A DNA stretch of 64,000 nucleotides from Synergistota bacterium (GTDB lineage Bacteria; Synergistota; Synergistia; Synergistales; 79-D21). The translations under genes were made by a program, and so were the position numbers. The notes beneath the pieces are model-generated. The model made no database searches and was not told the origin of the DNA. It was given only the letters and a program-made list of their open reading frames with translations. The stretch spans positions 44,983 through 108,982 of the forward strand of contig JALHIN010000002.1 of the NCBI GenBank assembly GCA_022839995.1, given 5' to 3'. Below, in pieces: positions 4,679 to 51,167 of this stretch (positions are counted from its first letter, which is position 1; every line of letters starts with the position of its first letter).

Positions 4679-4779
4679 GCACCTCCGAATTCGTTGACTT
4701 GTTGGAGCTATCCTATACTATGCGGGAGGGGTTTTCCAGTTCGGGGAACAGGCACGACCCCCGAAACCGGAGGGATACT

Positions 4780-6243
4780 TTGCCGATCGACAACCTGAAG
4801 GACAAGATCCGAACGCTTCCCAACCGCCCTGGGGTTTACCTGATGCACGACGGCCAGGGGCGCGTGATCTATATCGGAAAGGCAAAATGCCTGAAGAAGC
4901 GGGTTTCCTCCTACCTGCGGCACGGTCGCTTTTCCTCCCCGCGGCTGAAAAAGCTGACCGAGTCCGTTTGCGACCTTTCCTTCATCCGCACGGAATCCGA
5001 GGCGGAAGCCCTGATTGTCGAATCCAGGCTGATCAAGAGGTACCAACCCTTCTTCAACGTCGACCTCAAGATGGGGGAGAGATACCCCTGGATCAAGCTT
5101 ACGAAGGAGCGCTTCCCTCGCATCGAGATCACCCGGGTTCGCGCTGATGACGGTGCGGCCTATTTCGGTCCCTTTACACGCGTGTTTGAATTACGCCAGC
5201 TCCTCCGGCTGATCGAGCGCCATTTCCCCCTGCGAACCTGCCGATCCGGGGAACCGGCTTCCCCGGTACCGGGGAGGCCCTGCGTGAGGCACGCCCTGCA
5301 GCGCTGCCTTGCCCCCTGCGTAGGCAACTGCACGGAAAGCCGGTACTCGGAGGTGGTCGCCGATCTGTCCCTTCTTCTGAGCGGGAAAGCGACCGACCTT
5401 GTCGAACGCCTCCGGGACAGAATGGACCAGGCGGCAGAGGGACTTCACTTCGAAGAGGCCGCGAGGCTAAGGGACACGATTCGTGCGGTCTGGCGGTATA
5501 CCCGCCAGAAACGGAACCGGGTCCTTCCGGAGGACCTGGACAAGGACACCTGGGAGGCTTTCCTCCGGTTGCAATCCCTTCTCCGCCTCGCTTCCGCCCC
5601 TTGGCGGATCGACTGTTTCGACATTTCCCACCTTTCCGGGAAGGAAACCTACGGGGTGGTCGTGGTGTTCGAGCAGGGAGTCCCGAACCCGTCCCTTTAC
5701 CGTAAATTTACGATCCGGGAAGTGGAAGGGGTGGATGACTTCCGATCCATCCAGGAAACACTTCGAAGACGATACCGCCGATCCCTGCAGGGGAATGACC
5801 CCCTTCCCCAGCTGATCGTCATTGACGGGGGAGCCCAGCAGCTGCGTTTTGCCGCCGCAGCCCTGGAAGAACTCGGCCTTGCGGAAATCCCGGCAGTGGC
5901 GCTGGCAAAACAGGAGGAAGCGGTATACACTCTTTTTGACGAGGCCCCGCTCCTGCCGGAAAAAGAGGATCCGGCCCTTCAGCTTCTCCAGAGGTTGAGG
6001 GATGAAGCTCACCGGTTTGCGGTTTCCGCCCATAAAAAAGGCCGGGACAGGAAAAACCGGAGGTCCATCCTGGAGGAAGTCCCTGGGGTCGGGAAAAAGC
6101 GGGCGGCGGCATTGTTGGCAAAGTTCGGGGACCTAGGCAGGATCGCGGCAAAGACACCCGAGGATTTGGCTTGTGCCGTGCCGGGGATGGGAGTCACCGT
6201 GGCCCGAAGGATCATCGACCACCTGGAGGAAGCAGAGAAATGA
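4780..6243 (+). CDS. uvrC: Excinuclease ABC subunit C (compact form)
   Basis: Contains a GIY-YIG domain (PGVYLMHDGQGRVIYIGKAKCLKKRVSSY), a UVR domain (GLHFEEAARLRDTI), an endonuclease domain (RIDCFDISH) and a C-terminal (HhH)2 (VPGVGKKRAAALL). The start is uncertain. TTG at 4780 has GGAGGG 4-5 nt upstream and gives a canonical N-terminal length; alternatives are ATG 4720 and TTG 4699. Confidence 0.85.
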   Translation: MPIDNLKDKIRTLPNRPGVYLMHDGQGRVIYIGKAKCLKKRVSSYLRHGRFSSPRLKKLTESVCDLSFIRTESEAEALIVESRLIKRYQPFFNVDLKMGERYPWIKLTKERFPRIEITRVRADDGAAYFGPFTRVFELRQLLRLIERHFPLRTCRSGEPASPVPGRPCVRHALQRCLAPCVGNCTESRYSEVVADLSLLLSGKATDLVERLRDRMDQAAEGLHFEEAARLRDTIRAVWRYTRQKRNRVLPEDLDKDTWEAFLRLQSLLRLASAPWRIDCFDISHLSGKETYGVVVVFEQGVPNPSLYRKFTIREVEGVDDFRSIQETLRRRYRRSLQGNDPLPQLIVIDGGAQQLRFAAAALEELGLAEIPAVALAKQEEAVYTLFDEAPLLPEKEDPALQLLQRLRDEAHRFAVSAHKKGRDRKNRRSILEEVPGVGKKRAAALLAKFGDLGRIAAKTPEDLACAVPGMGVTVARRIIDHLEEAEK

Positions 6244-7352
6244 AAGAATCCGGCAGGGAAACCGACGAACGGTATATGCGGATGGCCATCAGCCTAGCCG
6301 AGCGGGGTACGGGTTGCGTCAGCCCCAACCCCCGGGTCGGCTGCGTTCTCGTGAAAGACCAGTCGATCGTGGGGTGGGGCTACCACCGGCGCTACGGAGG
6401 TTCCCACGCGGAAATGGAAGCACTTCGAATGGCAGGGAGCCTGGCGGCGGGTGCTACCGCTTATGTTAACCTGGAGCCCTGCTCGCATTTCGGGAAAACG
6501 CCTCCCTGCGCACCTCAGCTTGTGGAAGCGGGAATCGTCCGCGTGGTCGCCGGAATGCGGGATCCAAATCCGCAGGTCAACGGAATGGGCCTTTCCTGCC
6601 TCGAAAAGTCGGGAGTTCAGACCCAAGTCGGAGTTCTCGAGGAAGAGTGCAGGTGGCTCAATCGGGGATTCATCCGCAGGGTAACGTTGAACCGGCCCTG
6701 GGTGACCGTAAAAGCGGCGATGAGCCTCGATGGGGACATCGCCCTCCAGGGCGGTGAGAGCAAATGGATCAGCGGGCCCCTTTCCAGAAGCAAGGCCCAC
6801 CTTCTCCGCTCGGAACACGATGCCGTCCTGGTCGGGGTTGGGACCATCCTTGCGGACGATCCGGAGTTGACGGTAAGGCTCGTGGAAGGGCAGTCCCCCC
6901 TGAGGGTCGTCCTGGATACCCAGTTGAGGACGCCCCCGAAAGCCAGGGTCGTGGGAGACGGGCGATGCCTCGTCCTGGGGTCGGAAACCGCTCCTTCGGA
7001 ACGCGTTTCCGCCCTCGAACAGGAAGGAGCCCGGGTCATCCTCCTGCCTCCTGACGAAAAAACGGGAAGACTCCCGGTTGATCGGGTCCTCGCCACCCTT
7101 GCCTCGGAGGGGGTATCGATGCTCCTGGTCGAAGGGGGGAGTTCAGTGATCAGCGCCTTCATCCAAGCCCGCGCGGTCGACGAATACTCTCTTTTCCTCG
7201 CCCCGACCCTTTTGGGGAGAGGCATCCAGCTGGCCGGCGAGATTTTGCTGGGCAGCATGGAAGAAGCCGTTTCCCTTTCGCCTGCAACGATCAAGCAGGT
7301 CGAGGGAGACCTGTGGCTGGAGGTCAAACCCAAATGTTCACCGGCCTTATAG
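6240..7352 (+). CDS. ribD: Bifunctional riboflavin biosynthesis protein RibD (pyrimidine deaminase/uracil reductase)
   Basis: CMP/dCMP deaminase zinc motif HAEMEAL...PCSHFGKTPPC plus a C-terminal reductase domain. The ATG at 6240 overlaps the uvrC stop (ATGA). Confidence 0.9.
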   Translation: MKESGRETDERYMRMAISLAERGTGCVSPNPRVGCVLVKDQSIVGWGYHRRYGGSHAEMEALRMAGSLAAGATAYVNLEPCSHFGKTPPCAPQLVEAGIVRVVAGMRDPNPQVNGMGLSCLEKSGVQTQVGVLEEECRWLNRGFIRRVTLNRPWVTVKAAMSLDGDIALQGGESKWISGPLSRSKAHLLRSEHDAVLVGVGTILADDPELTVRLVEGQSPLRVVLDTQLRTPPKARVVGDGRCLVLGSETAPSERVSALEQEGARVILLPPDEKTGRLPVDRVLATLASEGVSMLLVEGGSSVISAFIQARAVDEYSLFLAPTLLGRGIQLAGEILLGSMEEAVSLSPATIKQVEGDLWLEVKPKCSPAL

Positions 7353-8002
7353 AGGAAGTGGGGGCGGTCCTCCGGATCTTCCCGGCAGGAGACGTCACGG
7401 AAATGGAAATCCGGGCCCCGGGCATTTCAGCCGGGCTTTGCAAGGGAGCCTCGGTAGCCGTCATGGGAGCTTGCCTGACGGTGACGGCCCTCGGAAGGGA
7501 CTCCTTCACGGTCGAGATGATGGAGGAGACGGTCCGCAAGACGAAACTGGGCAGGCTGAAAACGAATTCTCCGGTCAACCTCGAAAGGGCAATGAGGCTG
7601 GGGGGACGGCTTGACGGCCACCTTGTGACCGGTCATATTGACGGCATCTGTTTTCTCGCCGAAATGGGAGGGCAAGGAAAAACCCGGCTTGCAACCTTCA
7701 CGGCTGAAAGGGAACTCACCCGGATGATCGTCCCGAAAGGCTCCGTTGCCCTGGACGGAGTCAGCCTGACGGTGATCGATTCCGATCCCGTAAGGGGCCT
7801 CTTTTCGGTCGGCCTGATCCCGGAAACCCTCCGGCGGACGACACTCGGCACCCTGGCCGTAAAAGACCCGGTCAATCTCGAAACCGACCTGATTGCGAAA
7901 TACGTCAGGCGCTTTGTCTTGCCTGCGGAAAACGATTCCCGGGGCGGATCGACCAGGGGAGAAATCACTTGGGAAACGCTCCGGGAAAACGGGTGGATCT
8001 AG
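7334..8002 (+). CDS. ribE: Riboflavin synthase
   Basis: Canonical N-terminus MFTGLIEEVG and an internal repeat (GHIDG...SVALDGVSLTV). The start is taken at the MFTG methionine inside ORF 7313-8002. Confidence 0.9.
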   Translation: MFTGLIEEVGAVLRIFPAGDVTEMEIRAPGISAGLCKGASVAVMGACLTVTALGRDSFTVEMMEETVRKTKLGRLKTNSPVNLERAMRLGGRLDGHLVTGHIDGICFLAEMGGQGKTRLATFTAERELTRMIVPKGSVALDGVSLTVIDSDPVRGLFSVGLIPETLRRTTLGTLAVKDPVNLETDLIAKYVRRFVLPAENDSRGGSTRGEITWETLRENGWI

Positions 8003-8027
8003 TTTTCTCCTCAAGGAGGCTTAACGC

Positions 8028-9290
8028 GTGATCTGTAAACCACAAGGATCTCTGTTTCACCCCATCGAAGAAGCCCTGGAAGATATCCGAATGGGCAGGA
8101 TGGTCATCGTCGTCGATGACGAGGACCGGGAAAACGAGGGCGATCTCGTGATGGCGGCGGAGCTGGCCCGCCCCGAAGACATCAATTTCATGATCACCTA
8201 CGCCCGAGGACTTTTGTGCGTTCCGATCACACTCGAACAGGCGCGTAGGCTGAAACTGGACCTCATGGTGAGGGAAAGCTCCGATCCTCACGGGACCGCT
8301 TTCACGGTCAGCGTGGACGCCAGGGAGGGAACAACGACCGGAATCAGCGCCGCAGAAAGGGCCCACACGGCGCGAGTCCTCGCAAGCCCCGACTCCAGGC
8401 CCGAGGACCTGAGGCGTCCCGGCCACGTCTTCCCCCTTGCCGCCAAGAAGGGAGGCGTCCTGAAACGGGCCGGGCATACCGAAGCCGCGGTAGACATGGC
8501 AAGGTTGGCCGGCTTAAACCCGGCCGGAGCGATCTGCGAGATCATGAACGAGGACGGGTCCATGGCCCGGCTGCCGCAATTGCTGGAATTCGCGGACCGT
8601 CACCATCTTCGGATCGTTTCGATCGAAGACCTTATCCGTTATCGCCACATGAGGGACAAGCTCGTCGAGAGGGTAGCCAGCGTCCGCCTCCCGACGCCTT
8701 TCGGAGAATTCGTAGCCCATGCCTACCACTTCGTCCTCGACGAAAACCAGGACTTGCTGCACATCGCCCTCGTCAGGGGCGATGTCGCGGGGCAGGAGAA
8801 CGTCTTGGTCCGCGTCCACTCGGAATGCTTCACCGGGGATGTCCTTGGCTCCCTTCGATGCGACTGCGGGCCACAGCTCCACAAGGCCATGGAAATCGTC
8901 CAGCAGGAAGGACGGGGAGTGGTCCTCTACATGCGGCAGGAAGGACGGGGCATCGGCCTTTTCCACAAGCTGAAAGCCTATGAACTCCAGGAAAAGGGGC
9001 TGGACACCGTGGAAGCGAACGTAGCCCTCGGGTACGATCCAGACCTGAGGGATTATGGCGTGGGAGCCCAGATCCTGGCAGACCTCGGCCTGAAAAGCAT
9101 CCGGATCCTGACGAACAACCCGAGAAAAATCGTCGGGCTCCAGGGTTACGGCCTGAAGATCACGGAAAGAGTACCCCTGGAGGTCGGTGCGAATCCTTTC
9201 AATGCCGTTTACCTCCAGGCAAAGCAGGAAAAGATGGGACACCTCCTGCATCTTGACGAACCCCCGGCCGAGGAAACCGAGGGAGACTAA
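8028..9290 (+). CDS. ribBA: Bifunctional 3,4-dihydroxy-2-butanone-4-phosphate synthase / GTP cyclohydrolase II
   Basis: 420 aa. DHBP synthase half ([13 protein letters not shown]) followed by a GCH-II half ([20 protein letters not shown]). Confidence 0.95.
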
Positions 9291-34197: not shown

Positions 34198-35135
34198 TCG
34201 CCGCAATCGGAGCCTTCGACGGCTTTCACGTGGGACACGCCAGGCTGTTCGAAACGGCCAGGGAGAGAGCCCTGCCGACCGCCTGCGAGTGGGGCGTCAT
34301 CACTTTCCATCCCCACCCACAGGCGCTTTTCGCCGGAAACGCTTTCCGGTACCTTTTCACCGAGCACGAAAGGGAAGCATTGGCACGGTACCGCCGCATT
34401 CCAAGGCTTGAAACCCTGCATTTCACGCGAGCGCTCGCGGATATGAAACCCTCCGAGTTCCTCGACTGGATCGGTCAAAGCTATGGAATCACCGGGTTGG
34501 TCGTCGGGGAGAATTTCCGCTTCGGAAGGGGGAGGACCGGTGACAGCCAGACCCTCCGGCAGGAGGGGATCGCCCGCCGGTGGTCTGTCGATATCCTGCC
34601 CCCCTTGCGAATGGGGAAAGAAACCGTGAGCAGCACCCTGATCCGGCAAAAAATCAGCCTTGGCGAAACCCGTTCGGCCGAACCCTTGCTGGGGCACCCC
34701 TTCTTTGTTACGGGAACGGTCATCCGAGGAGACCAGAGGGGTAGAAGACTGGGTTTTCCAACAGCCAACCTGGCTCTACCCGCCGAAAAACTCCTCCCGC
34801 AAAGAGGCGTTTACGCGGCTGGCGTCCTCCTGGAGAACCATTGGTGCCCGGCGGCGCTGAACATCGGTTTCAATCCGACTTTTGCGGGAATCCGCGCCTT
34901 GCGGGTCGAAGTCCATCTCATTGGTTTCGAAGGCGATCTCTACGGCCGCCACCTGACTGTGCTGTTCTTGGAACGGCTTCGGGGAGAACTCCAGTTCCCG
35001 GGTGTCCAGGAATTGATCCGCCGGATGCACGAGGACATTTCGGAGGCCGATGCCTCCTGGCGCCGGTACGCCAGCGGGCGTGAATCACAGCTGCAATGGC
35101 TCCATGAATGTCTCTCGATTCAAAGGAAGGATTGA
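34194..35135 (+). CDS. ribF: Bifunctional riboflavin kinase / FMN adenylyltransferase
   Basis: IGAFDGFHVGHARL (FAD synthetase) and a C-terminal riboflavin kinase domain GDQRGRRLGFPTANL...PTFAG...EVHLIGFEGDLYG. The ATG overlaps the truB stop. Confidence 0.9.
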   Translation: MIAAIGAFDGFHVGHARLFETARERALPTACEWGVITFHPHPQALFAGNAFRYLFTEHEREALARYRRIPRLETLHFTRALADMKPSEFLDWIGQSYGITGLVVGENFRFGRGRTGDSQTLRQEGIARRWSVDILPPLRMGKETVSSTLIRQKISLGETRSAEPLLGHPFFVTGTVIRGDQRGRRLGFPTANLALPAEKLLPQRGVYAAGVLLENHWCPAALNIGFNPTFAGIRALRVEVHLIGFEGDLYGRHLTVLFLERLRGELQFPGVQELIRRMHEDISEADASWRRYASGRESQLQWLHECLSIQRKD

Positions 35136-35160
35136 AGCACCTAGCCGCCCGTGGTAAGAT
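35132..35160 (+). promoter_or_regulatory. Putative sigma70-type promoter of the (now truncated) chromosomal tRNA-Arg copy
   Basis: TTGAAG (35132-35137), a 17-nt spacer, then TGgTAAGAT extended -10 (35152-60), ending 15 nt before tRNA position 1. Confidence 0.35.
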
Positions 35161-35222
35161 ATCCGTCGTTCCGGTGGGCCCGTAGCTCAGGTGGATAGAG
35201 CGACGGCCTCCTAAGCCGTAGG
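35146..35222 (+). repeat. attL: 77-bp direct repeat (copy 1)
   Basis: Base-for-base identical to 42070-42146. Comprises 30 bp of upstream sequence plus tRNA-Arg positions 1-47. Confidence 0.95.
35176..35222 (+). pseudogene. Truncated tRNA-Arg(CCU) remnant (5' 47 nt only)
   Basis: Acceptor 5' strand, D arm and anticodon arm are present. The sequence diverges after ...GCCGTAGG, so there is no T arm or 3' acceptor strand. Confidence 0.9.
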
Positions 35223-35280
35223 AGTGCGACGAAGGCCATAAACCCTTGCGGTCACTATATTGACGAACTTACCAAGGTTC

Positions 35281-35297
35281 TCAGGAGTGACGGCCTA
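35281..35297 (+). repeat. 17-bp element-internal repeat TCAGGAGTGACGGCCTA (copy 1, near attL)
   Basis: Identical to 41970-41986. Resembles the tRNA D-stem/anticodon-arm segment GAGCGACGGCCT(CCT)AAGC. Confidence 0.8.
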
Positions 35298-35350
35298 AGC
35301 ATTTTTATAATCGTTTCATATGTAAACTACACGCCCAATAAAGTTCATTT

Positions 35351-36424
35351 TTACCGTCCACTCGGGACCCCTTCGGGGGTCTTTTCTGTTTTCCGGGGGC
35401 GGCCTCTCTTGCCTACCTCATCGAGACCTTTTTCAAGTCGTTTTTGACGCCTTTCCAATAGACGGAAGACAGAATCATAACAAGATGGCGGTGTGTCGAA
35501 TTCGCGTATGAAATCCGGATCCGGCTCGTCCATTTGAGGTTTTTGGTGCCTGACCTTCCCAGGGTTGTGGAGCCACACATCCCCCGTTTGTGGGAACCCC
35601 CGATGCAAAGTCTGGGCCAGGAAACGTCTCTCTTCGGCTGTGATCTTCAGAATTCGGCTCATCCCGGCTTTATGCCCGATCATCCCGCAACGGGCACAAG
35701 TATAAAAAGCATCCTCTCCCGTCATATACCTGGCAAGCCGATAGACCACGAAACAGGCCGGGGTTTCTCTAGATTCCTCAAATAAAACCGGCCTTGTCTT
35801 CCTCAGTCTTCCCTTTAGCTCCATTTCCTGTGGAGGGATGGCTCGCAAGGTCGTCGGATAGGCCTTCATCAAGCGGTTTAGGTTCGCATATGCGGCTACC
35901 TTGCAACGTTCCCGTTGTTCTAAAGGCAGTTCTTCGTTCTTGCTCTTCTCATAATCTTCTACAACGAGACCGATTCCCTTCGAGAAAGAAAACCATGTGG
36001 CCAAATCCCCCAGGTGTGTGATTCCGGAAGGTACGTCCACCGCTCCCCAGGTCTCGCTGTCCGTTTCAGAGTGGATTCCAAAAAGGGCACACCTGGAAGC
36101 GATCTCCTTGCATTTCTCTTTGAATTCTTCCCGGTCCTGACAACGCGACAATTCCGCAATCAAATAAAAAAGGGGGACTTTGGCCGGCGTTTTCAATTCC
36201 TCCTCGGCCAACTCCTGGATTCCTTCTCGATCCTTCACGGAAAGAATTTCCTTGCCGTGATACGTAAGCAAAGCCGTCTCGCCGGTTTTAAGTTTGATTC
36301 TTCTGCTTTTCTTATCAGCCCCGTCCCTGAAGTCCCACAAGAGGTTGTCTCGGTCAACGCGATAGTAGAGGTTCTGGACCCTGATCGTCCCCTGTGGGCC
36401 TAATTCGTCAATAGATGAGTTCAT
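35351..36424 (-). CDS. Orphan 357-aa protein (element cargo), unknown function
   Basis: Long ORF with balanced composition, and GGGGGG 9 nt upstream of the ATG. C-terminal basic tail with an AT-hook-like GRPRK, and a single CARCG motif. I recognise no family. Confidence 0.6.
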   Translation of the reverse strand: MNSSIDELGPQGTIRVQNLYYRVDRDNLLWDFRDGADKKSRRIKLKTGETALLTYHGKEILSVKDREGIQELAEEELKTPAKVPLFYLIAELSRCQDREEFKEKCKEIASRCALFGIHSETDSETWGAVDVPSGITHLGDLATWFSFSKGIGLVVEDYEKSKNEELPLEQRERCKVAAYANLNRLMKAYPTTLRAIPPQEMELKGRLRKTRPVLFEESRETPACFVVYRLARYMTGEDAFYTCARCGMIGHKAGMSRILKITAEERRFLAQTLHRGFPQTGDVWLHNPGKVRHQKPQMDEPDPDFIREFDTPPSCYDSVFRLLERRQKRLEKGLDEVGKRGRPRKTEKTPEGVPSGR

Positions 36425-36496
36425 ATGTTTCTTTCCCCCCTATTTCGTATCATTTTACCATCAGCACCGCCAATAGAAAAGAAAGGAGGTGAAGAA

Positions 36497-36703
36497 ATGA
36501 CGATTCTTAGAGCCCTGAGGATGGAGCGTAGGCTCCCCATCGTAGAGATTGCCTTCCATGTGGGAATGGACGACGGGACCTACAGCAAGGCGGAGCGTGG
36601 GTTCAAGCGATTCCCTGAGCGGGTGCGGGAAAGAGTTGCCGGTTTCTTCGGTGTGGAACAGGGTGAGCTTTTCGAGGAGTCGGGCTATGCCCGAAAAAAC
36701 TAA
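36497..36703 (+). CDS. XRE/Cro-type helix-turn-helix regulator
   Basis: 68 aa: MTILRALRMERRLPIVEIAFHVGMDDGTYSKAERGFKRFPERV. AAAGGAGGTG lies 6 nt upstream of the ATG at 36497. It is divergent from the 357-aa gene. Confidence 0.7.
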   Translation: MTILRALRMERRLPIVEIAFHVGMDDGTYSKAERGFKRFPERVRERVAGFFGVEQGELFEESGYARKN

Positions 36704-37541
36704 CCCCCGGACGGGACCGGGGGAAAGAAAGGGTGAAAACTTTATGACAAACTATAACTGCAATGAGCATACAACCAGCAAGCCTATCATGTCAACCTTC
36801 GACGGGTCTCCGGTAGTGGTGGGAAGGTACGACGAGAAATCCCGCTCCTTCCTGAACATCGTGAAAGCATCGGACCGGTTCAGGACTCACGACGCCTACG
36901 GCTTCGACGAGCCCGCCGTGGAGGAGTTGAAGAAGTTGGGTTGCCTGGAGATCGAGCTACAGATTACCGGAGGCAACCGGTACCGGATCGATTTTCAGAC
37001 CTTCCTGAAGCAGGCCCGCCGGATCGATTGGCCTAAACGGGGTGAAACTCGCTTCCCAGCAAGGCTGTATGTTCCCATGAGCTTCTGGCAAGTCGTCCAG
37101 GATGAGGTTGAAATGCCGGCGGTCATGGAAGAGCCGTCTGGAATGGACGACGGGAACCAGGAAGGATTGCCTCTGGTTGAAGAGCCGGTTCTGGCTACGC
37201 TTTTTGACGAGAATTCCCTTCGTGCCGTGAACCTCCTGGTCATCGGCTGGGGGTGGATCGGTGGAGAAGCCAACGGCTATCCCCCGCGTTTTCGGGCCAC
37301 AATACATTGTGACCAGTGTTCCACGATGTTCGAATCCGAAGTTCCCCATTTCGATTCCTGTCCGAATTGTGGAGCTCCCACCAGGCAAATGCATTGTTGC
37401 TGTATAGATGTTCTTCCAATCCCTCCAAAGAGGAAATACGTTTTACAAAAAGAACACTTAATCATGGATTCCAAGAAAGAGGACGAATCTCTCGAAGTGA
37501 TCCTGGCCGCAAGGCCGGTTAAAGAAGGTGTGGCGGCATGA
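36687..37541 (+). CDS. Orphan protein with C-terminal Cys4 zinc ribbon (element cargo)
   Basis: CDQC-x13-CPNC followed by HCCC. The start could be ATG 36687 (GAGGAG 7 nt upstream) or ATG 36744. I recognise no family. Confidence 0.55.
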   Translation: MPEKTNPRTGPGERKGENFMTNYNCNEHTTSKPIMSTFDGSPVVVGRYDEKSRSFLNIVKASDRFRTHDAYGFDEPAVEELKKLGCLEIELQITGGNRYRIDFQTFLKQARRIDWPKRGETRFPARLYVPMSFWQVVQDEVEMPAVMEEPSGMDDGNQEGLPLVEEPVLATLFDENSLRAVNLLVIGWGWIGGEANGYPPRFRATIHCDQCSTMFESEVPHFDSCPNCGAPTRQMHCCCIDVLPIPPKRKYVLQKEHLIMDSKKEDESLEVILAARPVKEGVAA

Positions 37542-38335
37542 CCTCCACCCTTGAGGCCGAAAAGAGCTTCAGCCTCGACGAGGCCCTGAAGGTCTGCGAT
37601 TCCCTGCGGGCCCAGGGTCTTCCTGAAAGCGTCATCCAGAATTTCCAGAAATATGCTGGCTGTGACACCCCACCCCTGGAGCTTCTCCGACAGGAATTCG
37701 GCCTCCCTGTGCAAGCCATCGCCCAGGTAGGAAGATCCGCGGACGCCGAGATCCTCCTGACCCTCCAGGACGGTTCACAGGTGAGCCTCGGAAGCGTCAG
37801 CGACATTCACGCCTTCCGGAAGGTGAAGGAAAGGCTGTTCGCGGAAAACGGCCTGGTCCTTCGCTCGGGACTTCGTAAACAGTGGGACGGGATCCTGAAG
37901 GCCATTGCCCAGCTCAAGACCGTGATCGAGGCACCGGATGCGGACAGGGACCTTTTGATGACGGCCCTGAACGACATCTGGAGGAATTCCTTCCGGATCG
38001 GGGCCGAATACGTCCAAGGCAGCACGTCCCTCAGCCTGAACCTGGACGACGAACGAAACGAGGACGCCGTCGTCCTGACCCTGGAAACGTCCGAGAAAGG
38101 GCTCAAGACGCCCGCGGGCCGCCTGATCGTCCGGACCACGAGCATCATCCGCCGCCTGAGCCTCTGCGAGGTGGCCCAGGTGAGCCGGAAGGTCGTCACC
38201 AGGGAGTTGTGCAAGATCGGCTTCACGGCGATACGCGTGAACCTGGCAGGCAAAAGGATCGGGACAGGGGCCCGCGATCAGGTGAGGGCATGGGTTTCGC
38301 CTGCGGAATTCGACAGGGTGCTTAGGGGGCTGTGA
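37538..38335 (+). CDS. Orphan 265-aa protein (element cargo)
   Basis: ATGA overlap with the upstream ORF. The C-terminal segment SRKVVTRELCKIGFTAIRVNLAGKRIGTGARDQVRAWV is reminiscent of the C-terminal tails of phage/plasmid replication proteins, but it has no Walker A motif. Confidence 0.55.
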   Translation: MTSTLEAEKSFSLDEALKVCDSLRAQGLPESVIQNFQKYAGCDTPPLELLRQEFGLPVQAIAQVGRSADAEILLTLQDGSQVSLGSVSDIHAFRKVKERLFAENGLVLRSGLRKQWDGILKAIAQLKTVIEAPDADRDLLMTALNDIWRNSFRIGAEYVQGSTSLSLNLDDERNEDAVVLTLETSEKGLKTPAGRLIVRTTSIIRRLSLCEVAQVSRKVVTRELCKIGFTAIRVNLAGKRIGTGARDQVRAWVSPAEFDRVLRGL

Positions 38336-38336
38336 C

Positions 38337-38521
38337 CCCCTATAGTACCCCACTTTTTTTTCTTGCCGAAAAAGGGTCTGTCACACGTCATTCTGTCACA
38401 GAAGAAGGGAAAAACCTTGGTAGCACTACCTTCCACAAGTGACAGATTGTGACGAAAGAGAACCTTCTAAAGATAGTCCAGATTTTTAAGAAGAAAGAAA
38501 AGAAGTGGGGTACTATAGGGG
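38337..38521. repeat. Nested-palindrome/iteron module in the element's largest intergenic gap
   Basis: 19-bp perfect inverted repeat CCCCTATAGTACCCCACTT (38337-55) / AAGTGGGGTACTATAGGGG (38503-21). Inside it: TGTCAC at 38379 and 38394, GTGACA at 38439, GTGAC at 38449, a central GGTAGcaCTACC (38419-30), and flanking T9 and polypurine tracts. Confidence 0.85.
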
Positions 38522-38648
38522 CTTTTTGAATTATGAGAGCCCCTAAAGGGGAAGCGGGTGTGACCTGATGGGGGGTGTGGGTCTTCTACGGAGTTCTTGC
38601 TGTGAACCGGCGGTTTCCCCATTCTCATAGAAAGGGGCGGTCCAGGCT

Positions 38649-39158
38649 GTGAATCCCTTCGAGACAAGGCGAAAGCTTGCGGATCTGATCCAGGTGGTTG
38701 CGGAGCTTCATCCTCTAGGCGTGAACCTCCTGGAGAATCCCGTGGGGCTCGATGCGGCGGCATTGGCCGAGTGGGTGAAGGCCTTGGGTAGCGGTGGGGA
38801 AGCGGGCGGCTCCCGAAGGTCTCCGAATGAAAAGGCGAAGAGTCTGGAGAATCTCCTGGCTTCCTGTGTGGACCTCCTGGAGGAAATCGGAGGGTGGAGC
38901 AGGGTTGTAAGCGCGGTGAAGGTTCTGAAGCAGGGATACCCCGTCGATTGGAGGGTCTTCCGGGATTATTGGGACCTGACGGCATCGGTGGGGAAGTTCT
39001 CACGCCTTGGGAGCGAAACAATTATTGACCGAGTGGCCCGCAGGAACGGTGTGTCAGTCCCTACGGTGTACCGGAAGCGCGACCAGGTTCCTGAAAGGAT
39101 AGCGATAATCACGATGCGCTTGAATCCGGACGAAGGCCCGGGAAAAGTTTCGATCTAG
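38649..39158 (+). CDS. Orphan protein with C-terminal HTH (excisionase/resolvase-HTH-like)
   Basis: 169 aa. The C-terminal IIDRVARRNGVSVPTVYRKRDQV has the typical 'GVSxxTVYR' HTH pattern. GTG start with a weak RBS, so the start is uncertain. Confidence 0.5.
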   Translation: MNPFETRRKLADLIQVVAELHPLGVNLLENPVGLDAAALAEWVKALGSGGEAGGSRRSPNEKAKSLENLLASCVDLLEEIGGWSRVVSAVKVLKQGYPVDWRVFRDYWDLTASVGKFSRLGSETIIDRVARRNGVSVPTVYRKRDQVPERIAIITMRLNPDEGPGKVSI

Positions 39159-39170
39159 GAGGTGGCATGA

Positions 39171-39614
39171 ATGTTTGGAATGAGGCAGAACCAGGGTATT
39201 ACGTTGCAAAAGGGGAAGCTTGAAACGAATCGGCCGGCGGTGTGTCGTGTGGAAGTGACCCCTCCCCGGCGGAATCTTCCTGTTCTGTGGCGGATCTGTA
39301 ATCGGTGTGACCAGACCGGAATCGACAAGATGAAAGGGTTCCCTCAACGGTGCCCGGAATGCGGCGGAAAGGGAATCATCCTGACTGAAGACGGGAAGGC
39401 TATCCTGGAGCTTCTGGAAGTCGTGGAATCCCATTCTCCCGTGACGGACGGGCAGGTTCAGAAAGCGTTCGAGAAGGACCAGGCAGAACGACAGGAAAGG
39501 GAAAGGCAGAGAGAAGAGCAGCGGAAGGCGGAAGAGGAGCGAGAGAAGAAGGTGCGGAAAGCCTTGGAGAAATTGGTAAAGGCAGGCTTCAGCCCTGACG
39601 AACTCCTGCGGTGA
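39171..39614 (+). CDS. Orphan zinc-finger protein (CxxC...CxxCxGxG) with charged C-terminal tail
   Basis: CNRCDQTG...CPECGGKG (DnaJ-type finger pattern), then a QERERQREEQRKAEEEREKK tail. AGGAGGTG lies 6 nt upstream. Confidence 0.55.
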   Translation: MFGMRQNQGITLQKGKLETNRPAVCRVEVTPPRRNLPVLWRICNRCDQTGIDKMKGFPQRCPECGGKGIILTEDGKAILELLEVVESHSPVTDGQVQKAFEKDQAERQERERQREEQRKAEEEREKKVRKALEKLVKAGFSPDELLR

Positions 39615-39648
39615 GGGGAATTTTTACAATTTATTGAGCGTAAAAAAA

Positions 39649-39678
39649 GGGGGACACGAAAAAGCTGTCCCTTTTTTT
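39649..39678 (+). terminator. Rho-independent terminator ending the element's rightward operon
   Basis: Stem GGGACA/TGTCCC (extendable by G-U pairs), a 9-nt loop, then T7. An A7 run upstream makes it look bidirectional. Confidence 0.6.
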
Positions 39679-39857
39679 ATGCTTATATTATCTGTATGTA
39701 GTTATATTGTGTAGATAGATACTTTTGGAACATAAGGTTTTCCCCGATAGACAGTTTGAAGGATTGGGAAGATATTAACTACAAGAAGGAGAGCAAATCG
39801 CGTTAGGGCTTTAGTATTCATAACTAACACTATACATACTCAGAGGAGGGAATAGCA

Positions 39858-40393
39858 ATGAATGGCGTATCACATCTTGACGTTTTCCAACGGCTTTTGC
39901 TTTTAAACCAATTTATGATATTAAGGTTTTAGACGATGAAAACAAAGGTGATTACAAGCTAATGGAAGAGATTTTAAGAATGGGTTATGTTAAAGAGTAT
40001 GACGAAGTATTTTCTATTTATGAAGAGTTGCCGTTAGCTAGATGTAATAGAGTATGGGATATTTTATCGATGGCCGATGCCATTTATTTAGCCTGCGAGA
40101 CTGCGAGTAAAGAAGAAATCGAAGCTCTTGAGGAAGACCCTTGGTTCTTCAAGGGTTTTGATGGTAATAACGAGACGGCAGAACTACTTTATTGCAAGTT
40201 TATTATTGAAAAAATGGAACGGTTCACTCATCTTAAGAATAAAATGCCAAAGAATACTGACTTTAACACCCATTTTCCAACGAATTTTCGTTATGATCCT
40301 ATGCTTTCTATGTGGAAAAGCTTGCCGACAAGCGATCGCTGTAAATTATCCATGGAAAATGTAAAGAAAATATTGAATAGTTTAAATAAATAA
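39858..40393 (+). pseudogene. yfbU: YfbU (UPF0304) family gene interrupted by a 1-nt frameshift
   Basis: ATG at 39858 (AGAGGAGGG 7 nt upstream) reads MNGVSHLDVFQRLLLLNQFMIL, then hits TAG at 39930. Shifting frame at ~39923 continues KVLDDENKGDYKLMEEILRMGY... into track ORF 39962-40393. The joined sequence aligns colinearly with E. coli YfbU ([43 protein letters not shown]...YTHF) from memory. Confidence 0.7.
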
Positions 40394-40442
40394 TTGTTTA
40401 TTTATTGGACTTAATATTCATATTCGCAACTTTTGAGGACAC

Positions 40443-40475
40443 AAAAGGGCAAGCCCTCGCGGGCCTGCCCTTTTT
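40443..40475. terminator. Bidirectional rho-independent terminator between yfbU and the 121-aa gene
   Basis: Stem GGGCAAGCCC/GGGCCTGCCC (one mismatch), loop TCGC, flanked by A4 upstream and T5 downstream. Confidence 0.65.
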
Positions 40476-40487
40476 CTGACCTCACCG

Positions 40488-40853
40488 TTAGATTCTTTTC
40501 TCCAGGAGCTTAAGGATGCGTCCCACCTCCTTATCCTGCCCCGAGATCTTCTGCACCGTGACCAGGACGCTGTGGGCGAGCTTCAGAAGATCCGCGGCTA
40601 TGTCGATCTTCGGGTCCTTCAGCATGGCCTCCATGACACCCCAGGCCTTGCTGTTCAAACGCTGTTCCACATCCTCCAGGAGTTCCTTGATCTTCGGATC
40701 ATCGAGGGGGTCCCCGATTTCCCGCAAAAGTTCCTCGTGGTTTTTCTGTGCTTCCTCCAGGAGAGCATCGAGGTTCGGGGCGGTGCTTTCCAGGTCCTCC
40801 AGAAGGTGTTCGAAACGGTCCTTTTGCTTTTGTGTGGCTCTTCTCATTGTCAT
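40488..40853 (-). CDS. Orphan acidic all-helical 121-aa protein downstream of the integrase
   Basis: AAGGAGGG RBS; the second ATG (40847) has the better spacing. K/E/D/L-rich. I recognise no family. Confidence 0.55.
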   Translation of the reverse strand: MTMRRATQKQKDRFEHLLEDLESTAPNLDALLEEAQKNHEELLREIGDPLDDPKIKELLEDVEQRLNSKAWGVMEAMLKDPKIDIAADLLKLAHSVLVTVQKISGQDKEVGRILKLLEKRI

Positions 40854-40951
40854 TCCCTCCTTCGACTTCTCAGGACGCCCTAGGAACCCCTTGTCATGGT
40901 TGCCGGCGGGTAGTTCCTTCCTCTTCGCGATTGATGACCGCTTCTGAAGGC

Positions 40952-41911
40952 TCAGCGACGGGCATCCCCCCTTTGCAGGGACCTGAGACGGGGCTTCCCC
41001 TCGGTTTTCAGCAAGCTGTTAAGCGGGCTGGCCTTGGAGTGTGCTTCCCTGAGGTCGTCATCGGACAGGGCAAGATAGCGTTTCGTCATGTCCAGGTTGG
41101 AATGGCCCATTTCCCTTTGAAGGGCGAAGAGGTTTCCGTTGTTCCTCAGGAACATGATGGCGTGACAATGGCGGAGGTCGTAAGGGCTGATCTTCACTCC
41201 AAGGCGTTTTCCGTACACCTTCTTTAACCGGTAGCCCCAGGAGTTGATCCGGTAGGATTCGCCTTCGTCGCTGCAGAAGATCGGAGATCCCTGCCAAGCC
41301 TCTGGACGGACGGCAAGCAGGCGAGAGATGGCCTGGCTGCAAATCCTGGAAATGACGAGGGTTCGGGCCCTTCGAGTCTTCGAGACTTCCGGGCGGATAT
41401 GAACCTCAAAGCCCGCAGGATTGAAGTCGCAGGGGTAGAGTTGGAGGGCTTCCCCCGGGCGGATCCCCGTATCGAGTTGGAGAAGGAGCAGGGCCTTGTC
41501 CCGTAGACCGGCGAAGGTCCCCGTATCCGGGAGATCGAGAAGCCGCTGGAGCACGTCGGGGGCGATCCGCACGATGCGGGGCTCGGCGTGCCTGGCCTTT
41601 ATCCCCTCGATCGGGTTCTGGTGGAGCAATCCTTCTTCCCTGGCCCAGTCGAAGAAGACCTTGAGATACTTCCTTCTTATATTGAATGTGGCCGGTGCCA
41701 CATTTTCCCCCAGGTACCGGTAGACACAGGCGTTCAGCGTGGACGTTCCCCAGGCCTCGGGGTAGCGTGTGAAGAAGCGGACGACATGGACCCGATAGTC
41801 CTTCAGCGTCCTGTCTGAAAGGCCGGTGGCCGTCCTCCACAGAAGAAAGGCCTCCAGGGCATCCTCCCAGGTCTCATAGCACGGCTTTCGAAGCGGAACA
41901 ACGTTTTGCAT
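40952..41911 (-). CDS. int: Tyrosine-type site-specific recombinase/integrase
   Basis: 319 aa. N-terminal SAM-like core-binding domain and a catalytic domain with R (DTGIRPGE), HxxR (YDLRHCHA), H (MGHSNL) and Y (TKRYL). Confidence 0.9.
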   Translation of the reverse strand: MQNVVPLRKPCYETWEDALEAFLLWRTATGLSDRTLKDYRVHVVRFFTRYPEAWGTSTLNACVYRYLGENVAPATFNIRRKYLKVFFDWAREEGLLHQNPIEGIKARHAEPRIVRIAPDVLQRLLDLPDTGTFAGLRDKALLLLQLDTGIRPGEALQLYPCDFNPAGFEVHIRPEVSKTRRARTLVISRICSQAISRLLAVRPEAWQGSPIFCSDEGESYRINSWGYRLKKVYGKRLGVKISPYDLRHCHAIMFLRNNGNLFALQREMGHSNLDMTKRYLALSDDDLREAHSKASPLNSLLKTEGKPRLRSLQRGDARR

Positions 41912-41969
41912 GATCCTCCCCTCGCTTTCTTAAGTTCCGCAAGGGAGAGGCTTAGTCCGGAAGGCTTGT

Positions 41970-41986
41970 TCAGGAGTGACGGCCTA
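41970..41986 (+). repeat. 17-bp element-internal repeat TCAGGAGTGACGGCCTA (copy 2, near attR)
   Basis: Identical to 35281-35297. Confidence 0.8.
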
Positions 41987-42055
41987 CCCGTTTGACCTAT
42001 TGGAAATGGCCAGTGGAGGAGTGGGACGGTTCACAGACTTTGGAGGGAGAAAACG

Positions 42056-42084
42056 TTGCCCGGACGGAACGCCCGTGGTAAGAT
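42056..42084 (+). promoter_or_regulatory. Putative promoter of the intact tRNA-Arg, with the -35 on element-side DNA
   Basis: TTGCCC (42056-61), a 17-nt spacer, then TGgTAAGAT (42076-84). The -10 lies within the repeat and the -35 lies outside it. Confidence 0.35.
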
Positions 42085-42146
42085 ATCCGTCGTTCCGGTG
42101 GGCCCGTAGCTCAGGTGGATAGAGCGACGGCCTCCTAAGCCGTAGG
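42070..42146 (+). repeat. attR: 77-bp direct repeat (copy 2)
   Basis: Identical to 35146-35222. Confidence 0.95.
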
Positions 42147-42176
42147 TCGCCAGTTCGAGTCTGGCCGGGCCCGCCA
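42100..42176 (+). tRNA. tRNA-Arg (anticodon CCU), CCA encoded
   Basis: Hand-folded cloverleaf: acceptor GGGCCCG/CGGGCCC, D arm GCTC/GAGC, anticodon arm ACGGC-CTCCTAA-GCCGT, T arm GCCAG-TTCGAGT-CTGGC, discriminator G, CCA. Confidence 0.9.
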
Positions 42177-50392: not shown

Positions 50393-50467
50393 GGGGCTGT
50401 GGCGCAGTGGGAGCGCGATTCCTTCGCACGGAATAGGCCAGGGGTTCGAATCCCCTCAGCTCCACCA
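50393..50467 (+). tRNA. tRNA-Ala (CGC)
   Basis: Hand fold: acceptor GGGGCTG/CAGCTCC with the G3:U70 identity pair, anticodon loop TTCGCAC, T loop TTCGAAT, CCA encoded. Confidence 0.85.
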
Positions 50468-50503
50468 GGATATCGATCTTGACTCTGTTATCATAGAGAG
50501 CGT

Positions 50504-50581
50504 CGGGGCGTAGCGCAGCCTGGTCAGCGCACCTGCTTTGGGAGCAGGGTGTCGAAGGTTCGAATCCTTTCGCCCCGACCA
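50504..50581 (+). tRNA. tRNA-Pro (UGG)
   Basis: Acceptor CGGGGCG/CGCCCCG, anticodon arm CCTGC-TTTGGGA-GCAGG, T loop TTCGAAT, CCA. Confidence 0.85.
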
Positions 50582-50602
50582 CCCTGAAGCTTAGCGGAAA
50601 AC

Positions 50603-50679
50603 GCGGGAATAGCTCAGCTGGCTAGAGCGATGGCCTTCCAAGCCGTAGGTCGCGGGTTCGAATCCCGTTTCCCGCTCCA
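50603..50679 (+). tRNA. tRNA-Gly (UCC)
   Basis: Acceptor GCGGGAA/TTCCCGC, anticodon loop CTTCCAA, discriminator U, CCA. Confidence 0.85.
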
Positions 50680-50690
50680 AAGAAATATAG

Positions 50691-50767
<77 letters not shown>

Positions 50768-50793
50768 CTTGGGAACAATGAAGGATTGGAGCC

Positions 50794-50871
50794 GGTGAGC
50801 GTAGCTCAATTGGTCAGAGCACTGGACTGTGGCTCCAGTGGTTGGGGGTTCAAGTCCCCTCGCTCACCCCA
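50794..50871 (+). tRNA. tRNA-His (GUG) with encoded G-1
   Basis: An extra 5' G opposite discriminator C, acceptor GTGAGCG/CGCTCAC, anticodon loop CTGTGGC, CCA. Confidence 0.85.
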
Positions 50872-50888
50872 AATTGAAGGCGGGACGT

Positions 50889-50964
50889 GCGCCCGTAGCT
50901 CAGTGGACAGAGCGGCGGACTTCGGATCCGTTGGTCGCGGGTTCAAATCCTGCCGGGCGCGCCA
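50889..50964 (+). tRNA. tRNA-Arg (UCG)
   Basis: Acceptor GCGCCCG/CGGGCGC, anticodon arm GCGGA-CTTCGGA-TCCGT, CCA. Confidence 0.8.
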
Positions 50965-50995
50965 GCCAATATAAAACCGAATATCGAGTTGCTGT

Positions 50996-51071
50996 GGACC
51001 GTTAGCTCAACTGGCAGAGCACCTGACTCTTAATCAGGGGGTTACAGGTTCGATTCCTGTACGGTCCACCA
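50996..51071 (+). tRNA. tRNA-Lys (CUU)
   Basis: Acceptor GGACCGT/ACGGTCC, anticodon arm CCTGA-CTCTTAA-TCAGG, CCA. Confidence 0.85.
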
Positions 51072-51082
51072 TTTTTTTTCCG

Positions 51083-51167
51083 GCGAGAGTGGTGGAACTG
51101 GTAGACACGCTGGACTTAGGATCCAGTGGCGAAAGCCTTGCGGGTTCAAGTCCCGCCTCTCGCACCA
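51083..51167 (+). tRNA. tRNA-Leu (UAG), long variable arm
   Basis: Acceptor GCGAGAG/CTCTCGC, anticodon loop CTTAGGA, variable arm TGGCGAAAGCCTTGC, CCA. Confidence 0.85.

Follow-up and report, generated by a model that had tools for sequence, protein, structure and literature searches.

A recently mobile integrase island at a tRNA-Arg gene of Synergistaceae carries a putative replication module and an apparently exchangeable defence slot

Introduction

What kind of mobile DNA carries an integrase and a handful of genes of its own, and no recognisable means of leaving the cell? This question is raised by an element of about 6.9 kb at a tRNA-Arg gene in a 64,000-nucleotide stretch of a Synergistota genome (GTDB lineage Bacteria; Synergistota; Synergistia; Synergistales; 79-D21; assembly GCA_022839995.1, contig JALHIN010000002.1, positions 44,983 to 108,982 of the forward strand). 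We refer to the whole stretch as the window and give all positions in its own coordinates unless another locus is named. Small islands in which an integrase is combined with a module for replication and with defence genes that can be swapped, called hitchers, are thought to be a major and under-counted class of mobile DNA. To our knowledge, the examples studied come almost entirely from Proteobacteria, Firmicutes and marine cyanobacteria, and we know of no described satellite from the phylum Synergistota. An earlier note on this DNA, made from the sequence alone, had described an integrative element whose cargo matched no characterised system.

Here we report that the island is real and recently mobile. 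We judge it likely that the 6.85-kb insert between the two terminal repeats is a mobile island that integrates site-specifically, cannot transmit itself and belongs to a family in Synergistaceae not described before. It is best filed as a small replicative integrase island of the satellite or tycheposon class with a defence hotspot and not as a new kind of system. Its points of difference are an orphan backbone, a replication pair without an enzyme, a hypervariable first open reading frame (ORF1) and an insertion on the 5' side of the tRNA gene with apparent promoter replacement.

Results

Integration site and attachment repeats

The element is bounded by a direct repeat of 77 nt, 100% identical between positions 35146-35222 and 42070-42146 at a spacing of 6924 and the sole 77-nt family found by the repeat search. 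ARAGORN and Rfam (68.2 bits) placed an intact tRNA-Arg(CCU) gene (anticodon CCT in the DNA) on the forward strand at 42100-42176. From this mapping, it follows that the repeat consists of 30 bp of tRNA upstream DNA and tRNA positions 1-47. The right copy, attR, runs on into the intact gene, and the left copy, attL, holds a truncated tRNA (both on the forward strand); a complete tRNA-Arg(CCU) is found at the right copy only. The left flank is an infB-rbfA-nrnA-truB-ribF block, and the right flank comprises DUF1850, a DctM-type tripartite ATP-independent periplasmic (TRAP) permease and ileS. The insertion lies 5' of the tRNA gene. The integrase gene (int), whose start is 158 bp from attR, adjoins the intact tRNA gene, and the partial copy is at the opposite end. 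This is the mirror image of the usual arrangement. Above threshold, Rfam found the tRNA alone within the element. A sub-threshold tRNA match (23.9 bits, 35176-35256) covers the truncated attL copy and adjoining element DNA and presumably reflects no more than the 5' two-thirds of the tRNA kept there.

The repeat search also revealed a sub-terminal direct repeat on the forward strand. Its left copy, with the sequence TCAGGAGTGACGGCCTA, lies 59 nt inside attL (35281-35304) and its right copy 77-100 nt inside attR (41970-41993); the copies share 88% identity, including the 17-nt direct repeat TCAGGAGTGACGGCCTA, which recurs beside attL in the four variants compared. These copies are candidate arm-type integrase sites, which would flank the core in attP. 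The expected attP junction, read from the right to the left element end, is ...GTTGCCCGGACGGAA / 77 bp / AGTGCGACGAAGGCC..., and the expected attB junction of an empty site is ribF / 77 bp / TCGCCAGTTCGAG.

Element variants, empty sites and spread between hosts

Thirty-odd related loci came from look-ups of identical proteins and from a single scan of metagenomes with the att core. The ribF-tRNA-Arg/DUF1850 site was occupied, with repeats of 75-77 bp, in L004 (JGI), L007 (GCA_041447345.1), L008-L015 (JGI, NCBI, ENA and Logan) and L033. It was also occupied in L034, a locus that ends inside the element and shows the left repeat alone. The repeats were perfect or near-perfect everywhere and measured 75 bp in the relatives (att identity block 74-77 bp). 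At least five element variants occupy the site with intact ORFs in a compact and conserved order, namely ORF1, an XRE-type helix-turn-helix (HTH) gene, ORF3, ORF4, an intergenic region, ORF5, ORF6, a variable slot, ORF8 and int. A distant member, L016 on a 13.4-kb Logan contig, keeps this order at 56% identity for the integrase, 66% for ORF8 (C-terminal 74 aa), 42% for ORF4, 37% for ORF3 and 31% for ORF5.

Empty counterparts were found on ten metagenome contigs that carry ribF, one complete tRNA and DUF1850 with no insert. Three pairs join an occupied and an empty site in the same species-level host: L008/L020 with 94.9% flank identity, L017/L018 with 98.5% and L019/L027 with 95.5%. A gene-by-gene comparison of the window with L004, L007 and L008 gave 68-80% identity for the flanking genes and 84-99% for the backbone genes (ORF4 93-96%, int 91-96%, HTH about 95%). 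This difference shows that the element crossed species boundaries recently. An old fixed island would have diverged together with its host, which the backbone did not, and we therefore rejected this possibility. All hosts seen are Synergistaceae: two GTDB species representatives, metagenomes labelled as activated sludge and sediment, and other JGI and ENA assemblies. Besides JGI and ENA samples, the element is contained in the sequencing runs SRR18493541, SRR17288838, SRR11085567/8 and SRR12658726. A 6907-bp Logan contig was considered as a circular form of the element and rejected. It ends in halves of the repeat and is as long as the interior with 2 x 30 nt (2 x (k-1)) added; a break of the k=31 graph at the repeat yields the same length, so that this contig shows no circle.

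These results bear on most of what the earlier note had said about the locus as a whole. The identical repeats, the cloverleaf completed at the right only and the core-gene flanks were all found as described, and the view of a recent or still mobile integrative element in tRNA-Arg(CCU) gained the empty conspecific sites, the several variants and the much higher similarity of the backbone compared with the flanks. Of the objections it had foreseen, an assembly artefact is ruled out by the recurrence of the repeat architecture in independent NCBI, JGI, ENA and Logan assemblies, and an ancient fixed block by the backbone that did not diverge with the host and the empty sites in relatives. The search it proposed for syntenic copies returned the same backbone beside an integrase in L004, L007, L008, L033 and the distant L016. 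The proposed search for empty sites succeeded with ten contigs and three species-level pairs, none of them from the species of the window.

Promoter exchange at the tRNA gene

Insertion on the 5' side would separate the tRNA gene from its host promoter region, and we read the promoter boxes on either side by eye. A -10-like TAAGAT lies within the repeat, 15 nt before the tRNA, in an extended context (TGnTAAGAT; TGgTAAGAT); its attL copy is at 35155-35160. At empty sites and at attL, the -35-like box is the host TTGAAG (35132-35137), which overlaps the ribF stop codon 17 nt upstream of the -10 box. At attR, the promoter-like region of the re-formed tRNA gene (42056-42084, forward strand) consists of TTGCCC at 42056-42061, a 17-nt spacer as in the host and TAAGAT at 42079-42084. 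Here the -35-like box is element DNA. It sits in the block AACGTTGCC, which every element type seen has conserved at its right end. The attR pair has 8/12 consensus matches, under the threshold of the promoter scan. As judged from these boxes, the element appears to bring a replacement -35 box that would keep the tRNA expressed. This would be a rarely described solution to insertion on the promoter side of a tRNA gene. At the other end, a hairpin with a T-run (35364-35395, forward strand) forms a terminator-like site within the ORF1 region that could halt read-through from the orphaned host promoter at attL, antisense to ORF1.

Replication module

Between the repeats there are nine ORFs, of which the tyrosine integrase, the XRE HTH and a YfbU ORF belong to named families and six are without family assignment. 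Two of these six, ORF3 and ORF4, form a putative replication module. ORF3 (265 aa; 36744-37541, forward strand) is 284 aa long when the gene caller's start at 36687 is used, and its stop codon overlaps the start of ORF4. In the protein, a strongly conserved beta-rich N-terminal domain (about aa 10-118) is followed by a linker of variable sequence and by a C4 zinc ribbon. No catalytic domain of the archaeo-eukaryotic primase (AEP) type was recognised in it, as PF09250 gave no match and the invariant residues are D55 and D95 only, with no His and no DxD/H/D set. The top PDB match of its model (Hjc) had an E-value of 0.1, and an assignment to the PD-(D/E)xK nucleases was rejected, since the acidic residues are not kept in L016 or L032. 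A different small element occupies the same tRNA-Arg site in L032 (1-6864) and L019, with an integrase of 314 aa, an 84-aa ORF and a 370-aa protein in the ORF1 slot. In this element, a protein of 170 aa that is homologous to the ORF3 N-domain (38% identity) is encoded directly upstream of a 618-aa DnaG-Zn/Toprim/AAA_25 primase-helicase. From this context, the ORF3 domain travels with replication proteins of two unrelated types, and the replication module has been swapped within one att/int family.

ORF4 (265 aa; 37538-38335, forward strand) is a putative origin-binding initiator according to its sequence and fold matches. A word-indexed search of 5.8 billion proteins returned near-identical matches alone, and a tblastn search with the protein gave no match in phages. 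HMMER against 1.84 billion representatives found 21 matches, comprising P0006 (44%, the L016 copy), several stand-alone proteins of about 220-300 aa and many longer ones of about 460-590 aa. ORF4 aligns to the C-terminal 200 or so residues of longer AEP-type proteins with E-values of 2e-7 to 8e-4. Ten matches were scanned against Pfam; in five, known domains lie upstream of the aligned part, namely Prim-Pol and PriCT_1 in P0007 and P0008, the NrS-1 polymerase HBD in P0013 and RepB_primase_C in P0017 and P0019, and the remaining five had no Pfam domain. Two remote stand-alone homologues, P0021 and P0022, are on short contigs with uninformative surroundings. The AlphaFold model of ORF4, built from a 12-sequence alignment, reached a mean predicted local distance difference test score (pLDDT) of 75.8 and ends in a winged-helix-like segment. 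Compared with viral structures, it matched a 215-aa phage protein (E 8e-12) and phage primases of 572 aa (E 1e-7) and 592 aa (E 2e-7); in the PDB, no match was significant, and the most sensible of the weak ones was to the replication initiator of SaPIbov1, a Staphylococcus aureus pathogenicity island (SaPI; probability 0.85, E 0.18). By sequence and predicted fold, ORF4 is a free-standing homologue of the non-catalytic C-terminal domain of AEP primase-polymerases.

The 313-bp intergenic region directly downstream of ORF4 (38336-38648) is the candidate origin. It is 90-96% conserved among the variants. It holds A/T tracts, five iterons (TGTGAC/GTCACA) and a 24-nt inverted repeat whose arms (38337-38360 and 38498-38521) are 137 nt apart. 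Five of the 20 TGTGAC hexamers of the 64-kb window fall within 340 bp here, and the region folds with a z-score of -5.8 against shuffles. In L016, all three TGTGAC copies of the 13.4-kb locus are at the corresponding places. The outer inverted repeat of L016 is one base off that of the window (TATAG versus TATTAG), and the change is mirrored in the second arm, which argues that the palindrome itself is functional. From these features, the region looks like an origin, with ORF3 and ORF4 as its probable recognition proteins. The module thus pairs a homologue of a primase C-terminal part with an adjoining iteron and inverted-repeat region. Since the element of the window encodes no nucleoside triphosphatase (NTPase), a primase and a helicase of the host or a helper would be needed.

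Regulators and remaining backbone genes

The rightward operon starts with a 68-aa XRE/Cro-type HTH gene (36497-36703, forward strand; PF13560 6e-6, phrog_7241). Divergent from it lies ORF1 (357 aa; 35351-36424, reverse strand) in a hypervariable slot. Near-identical proteins were its only matches among the 5.8 billion. The ORF1 of the window and that of L033 (8645-9682) are 28% identical (E 2e-19) beside neighbouring genes that are 94-97% identical. L007 and L008 carry a 417-439-aa protein without detectable similarity in this slot, and L016 and L032 yet another type, so that the family has at least four ORF1 allele classes. The C-terminal end is better conserved. In the window it reads CxxCG..G...GM followed by an AT-hook-like basic tail (GKRGRPRK..KTPEGV), and the window, L033 and L016 share the CxxC, then GM(S/T) and the AT-hook-like tail (KRGRPRK...KTPEGV in the window and L033, ...RKKTPEGV in L016). 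In the L007/L008 type, a zinc ribbon (CxxC...CxxC) and another kind of basic tail are found instead. Comparison of the allele-group profiles gave 15-17% probability, confined to the zinc-finger region, and homology across types is shown solely for the window versus L033. Given its divergent position opposite a Cro-like gene, its rapid exchange and its apparent DNA-binding character, ORF1 might be an immunity or helper-sensing determinant.

ORF5 (169 aa; 38649-39158, forward strand) has a weak C-terminal HTH (aa ~110-143). ORF6 (147 aa; 39171-39614, forward strand) carries a zinc ribbon of the DnaJ/anti-TRAP type (CxxCxGxG) together with a coiled, charged tail; the close variants have this gene, and L016 has no homologue. 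Sequence searches of ORF1, ORF3, ORF4 and ORF5 against the PDB gave no match, profile searches with alignments of ORF4, ORF5, ORF6 and ORF8 gave weak HTH or zinc-ribbon matches at most, and besides the integrase no backbone gene matched PADLOC or NCBIfam. The backbone is essentially orphan, with ORF1, ORF3 and ORF4 lacking close relatives outside the family among the 5.8 billion proteins.

The tyrosine integrase (319 aa; 40952-41911, reverse strand; PF00589 5e-20, PHROG_1 2e-45) has the catalytic residues R151, Y244-D-L-R247-H248 (box II), H270 and Y279. The closest phage integrase is that of a Moorella phage with 38% identity. ORF8 (119 aa; 40488-40847, reverse strand), which is acidic and helical, follows directly downstream of int on the same strand. 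It contains a conserved DNA segment (40527-40665) with the 9-bp inverted repeat GATCTTCTG...CAGAAGATC. This segment of about 100-139 nt is 90.6% identical to the distant L016 (11854-11992) and almost invariant in all family members, with synonymous change in just 7 of 44 conserved codons. Its folding as single-stranded DNA is not unusual (z-scores -1.5 and -1.7). The segment may be a cis site that serves packaging, transfer or recombination; alternatively, it may be a tract of recent recombination at the border of the cargo slot.

Cargo slot

The variable slot extends from 39615 to 40487, between ORF6 and ORF8, with terminator-like hairpins at its flanks and a GC content of 36-39% compared with 55-60% for the element. 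In the window, it holds a YfbU-domain gene only (39858-40393, forward strand), and this gene is frameshifted. The main ORF spans 39962-40393, and the first 22 or so codons (39858-39923) are out of frame in a frame that stops at 39930-39932. Insertion of one base restores a 178-aa YfbU ORF and raises the PF03887 score from 95.4 to 126.9 bits (profile positions 5-165; 5e-27 as found and 1e-36 repaired). NF003936 matched with 6e-25 and 88.4 bits, just below its 90-bit cutoff, and a PHROG family exists for YfbU. The same 143-aa gene call is present on Logan contig L002, reported in four samples, and for this reason the frameshift is taken as real. The data suggest a recent gain from a low-GC donor followed by inactivation.

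The content of the slot is different in each of the variants. The L007/L008 group carries an EcoRI-type methylase and a GmrSD_N/HNH endonuclease (PADLOC MTase_II 1e-127, REase_II 5e-141). L004 (2166-6420) has a Dam-type methylase, a HerA/DUF87 ATPase and a family-less 443-aa protein with a CxxC...CxxC motif, a cassette in which PADLOC names parts and no defence system beyond them. An N6_N4 methylase-Mrr fusion is found in L016, and DUF4160 with small ORFs in L033. On gene content, the family seems to swap anti-phage genes in one fixed slot. In L016, there is in addition a 1267-aa P-loop protein (GLSGVGKT) without Pfam match, together with a 184-aa protein, between the origin-like region and the ORF5 homologue (3890-8307); the two genes may be a STAND-like defence pair in a second cargo position.

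The gene content leads us to revise several statements of the earlier note. Its claim that the cargo matches no characterised system did not hold: of the seven "cargo" ORFs, six belong to the conserved backbone, the slot gene YfbU has a relative in the defence system Kamadhenu, the slot of the relatives contains an ordinary type II restriction-modification system and other defence-type cassettes, and ORF4 is placed with replication proteins. The note had proposed either a replication and regulation set or a function such as defence; each applies to different genes, the former to the backbone and the latter to the slot. Its integrase is intact with regard to R, H and Y, and the HxxR motif it had reported is replaced by YDLRH in box II. 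The XRE HTH and the YfbU family assignment were recovered, and the YfbU gene proved to be frameshifted. No element ORF has a Walker A motif, as stated there. The absence of a primase is correct for a catalytic domain and has to be qualified by the homology of ORF4 to the C-terminal domain of AEP primase-polymerases. Finally, the structure and profile searches it had recommended linked ORF4 to phage primases and gave no significant fold match for ORF3.

Outside the element, the window contains a cluster of eight tRNA genes at 50393-51167 on the forward strand (Ala-CGC, Pro-TGG, Gly-TCC, Arg-TCT, His-GTG, Arg-TCG, Lys-CTT and Leu-TAG).

Discussion

The features described above can be combined into a possible life cycle. 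The integrase would recombine attP and attB, with the TCAGGAGTGACGGCCTA repeats probably assisting as arm sites. After insertion on the 5' side, expression of the tRNA would be maintained by a new -35 box that comes with the element. The divergent ORF1/XRE-HTH pair may act as a switch between maintenance and activation, with ORF1 as its fast-evolving specificity or sensor part. Once excised, the circle would replicate from the iteron and inverted-repeat region, where ORF3 and ORF4 could mark the origin and a primase and helicase would be borrowed from host or helper. Exchangeable anti-phage genes would sit in the slot between ORF6 and ORF8. Transfer would rely on an outside vehicle, for which a helper phage is favoured before a conjugative element or vesicles.

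How the element travels is the point on which the readings differ. No capsid, terminase, portal, relaxase or type IV secretion system (T4SS) family was matched in the element by Pfam, PHROGs, NCBIfam or PADLOC, and on the basis of our analysis we tentatively place a helper-phage lifestyle ahead of passive or vesicle dispersal, and the latter ahead of mobilisation through an origin of transfer (oriT) alone. The element could be a phage satellite resembling the phage-inducible chromosomal islands (PICIs) or their minimalist form (PICMIs), in which a helper phage of Synergistaceae relieves a repression, possibly sensed by ORF1, and excision, replication and packaging in helper capsids follow without recognisable packaging genes of its own. 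We regard this as possible and far from established. The size of 6.9-13 kb, the integrase at one end, the divergent regulators, the replication module with an adjacent origin-like region and the defence hotspot all agree with it, as does the spread of the element faster than host divergence. Repressors of the Stl type are divergent among SaPIs, and the hypervariable regulator beside conserved neighbours recalls them; the weak fold match of ORF4 to the Rep of SaPIbov1 points in the same direction. PICMIs may be without terS, sid, ppi and a visible pac or cos site (PMC10803314), and defence hotspots are described on P4-like satellites (PMC9122126). However, the resemblance is purely architectural: the element has no known helper, no terS, capsid-remodelling gene, AlpA or Xis-like protein in Pfam or PHROG, and no relative in IMG/VR or among GenBank phages. 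Somewhat less probable, in our view, is an integrative plasmid resembling the tycheposons that sets its own timing of excision and replication and is dispersed in a passive way by vesicles, transformation or generalised transduction. The parts list is the same (tRNA-targeting tyrosine recombinase, replication module, cargo and no transfer genes) and sister elements at the same att site have swapped replication modules, but sequence alone cannot separate this model from a satellite.

Unlikely, though still deserving a place, is an integrative mobilizable element (IME) without its own relaxase, on whose short oriT, possibly 40527-40665, a conjugative element of the community acts. Such an oriT would fit the conserved segment in ORF8, with its inverted repeat and suppressed synonymous change amid elements that have otherwise diverged by 40-70%, and both the spread between species and the absence of packaging genes are compatible with mobilisation. 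Yet the searches detected neither a relaxase nor a coupling protein nor an auxiliary gene of the MobI type, the element is similar to none of 72,556 plasmids, and the segment folds in an ordinary way as single strand. A decayed prophage or an old fixed island that retained its repeats is very improbable. The similarity of the integrase to that of a Moorella phage, the PHROG family of YfbU and the state of the YfbU copy as a pseudogene could be read in this way, but fragments of structural or lysis genes are missing, the ORFs are intact and in compact, conserved order in at least five variants, the repeats are perfect or near-perfect, conspecifics have empty sites and the backbone is far more similar than the flanks.

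Several observations weigh against the mobile replicative island as we describe it. Regarding mobility, the closest contigs to the window, L026 and L029 (94% flank identity), are occupied and its own species yielded no empty site, and neither an attP junction nor a circular contig was present among the 16 metagenome contigs with the att core, all of them assembled contigs. Regarding transfer, no helper, pac or cos site, oriT or relaxase was identified; the element DNA had no match in 50,697 phage records or in the plasmid set; and IMG/VR was empty for ORF3, the ORF3 N-domain profile, the conserved ORF8 segment, the iteron block and the att core. Regarding replication, the element encodes no catalytic replication enzyme, the ORF3 model is poor (AlphaFold pLDDT 56, about 75 for the N-domain) and without significant fold match, ORF4 has no significant PDB match, and the "origin" could possibly be an operator, a promoter region or a structured RNA. 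The promoter boxes at the tRNA, identified by eye, match the consensus weakly. Moreover, the sole cargo gene in the window is frameshifted, and this copy may give the host nothing.

The wider reading, a new family of helper-dependent hitchers in Synergistota that are most likely phage satellites, is therefore put forward tentatively. If it is true, ORF3 and ORF4 would be an enzyme-free initiator pair that co-opts the primase and helicase of helper or host, the hypervariable ORF1 a helper-sensing switch, the conserved site of about 100 nt in ORF8 a signal acting in cis in packaging or transfer, and insertion on the 5' side with a built-in replacement promoter an integration signature of the family. 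The family extends the hitcher pattern to the Synergistaceae of anaerobic digesters and sediments. It also offers compact, testable parts, i.e. the enzyme-free initiator pair with its origin, the hypervariable regulator and a defined defence slot. This slot could be used to discover antiphage genes, for example the L004 cassette of methyltransferase, HerA and the 443-aa protein or the 1267-aa P-loop protein of L016.

Judged by the defining genes and sites of known systems, the element fails membership of the PICIs, P4-like satellites, PICMIs, ICEs, IMEs and prophages. The earlier note had stated that it fits neither a prophage, an integrative and conjugative element (ICE), an insertion sequence element nor a classical satellite, and Pfam, PHROGs, NCBIfam and PADLOC indeed recovered no such families. 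For ICEs and IMEs, no relaxase, T4SS or coupling protein match was found, an oriT not being recognisable by sequence, and for prophages no capsid, portal, terminase, tail or lysis genes in Pfam or PHROG. Kamadhenu is a single-gene system with a YfbU domain and abortive-infection activity in Lactococcus (PMC11381338; PMC13064643). The YfbU protein of the window is similar in being encoded by a single gene on a mobile element and in its length (about 180 aa, 178 aa after repair here), whereas the window copy is frameshifted; the likeness is drawn from the YfbU domain, and PADLOC 2023 has no model for Kamadhenu. ORF4 shares sequence and predicted fold with the C-terminal part of AEP primase-polymerases of the Prim-Pol plus PriCT_1, NrS-1 and RepB_primase_C types. 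In contrast to these, it stands alone without the Prim-Pol catalytic domain (no PF09250 in ORF3 or ORF4).

P4-like satellites integrate in tRNA genes. They are described with about 10 kb, a conserved backbone, one hotspot for swapping defence genes and a primase-type replication protein (PMC9122126, PMC8628076), all of which has a counterpart here. However, no homologue of psu, sid, delta, epsilon or alpha was found in the element with Pfam or PHROG, ORF4 corresponds to the primase C-terminal domain only, and neither a cos site nor a P2-like helper is present. PICMIs and PICIs are likewise small, with an integrase, few core genes for excision and replication and defence cargo, and PICMIs do without capsid-remodelling genes or terS (PMC10803314). 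PICIs furthermore share the divergent regulators beside a replication gene with an adjacent origin. Unlike the element studied here, which uses tRNA-Arg and has no AlpA match, the PICMIs of Vibrionaceae insert beside fis and employ AlpA. From PICIs it differs in having no homologue of Stl, Pri-Rep, TerS or Ppi, and terS, ppi and cpm gave no match in Pfam or PHROG.

Tycheposons adjoin tRNA genes with partial tRNA repeats and are enriched in vesicles and capsids (bioRxiv 10.1101/2020.12.28.424599). They resemble our element in the tRNA-targeting tyrosine recombinase, the replication module, the exchangeable cargo and the lack of transfer machinery, as well as in the presence/absence polymorphism and the several element types per tRNA site. 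This comparison is based on the parts list and not on the integrase clade, and the hosts are marine cyanobacteria versus anaerobic Synergistaceae here. The element further differs from tycheposons in backbone proteins that lack detectable homologues beyond the family, in a replication module without catalytic primase or helicase and in its 5'-side insertion with an apparent replacement -35 box. For this insertion mode, a parallel exists in Klebsiella, where islands upstream of tRNA-Arg (arg2A-VII) were noted as an exception (bioRxiv 10.1101/2020.11.02.365908). Both share the rare use of the 5' side of a tRNA gene and a repeat that spans the 5' part of the tRNA. In the Klebsiella islands, the repeat comprises the acceptor stem's 5' half and the D arm only, whereas in the Synergistaceae element it stretches between -30 and position 47, taking in the anticodon arm as well as the -10 box.

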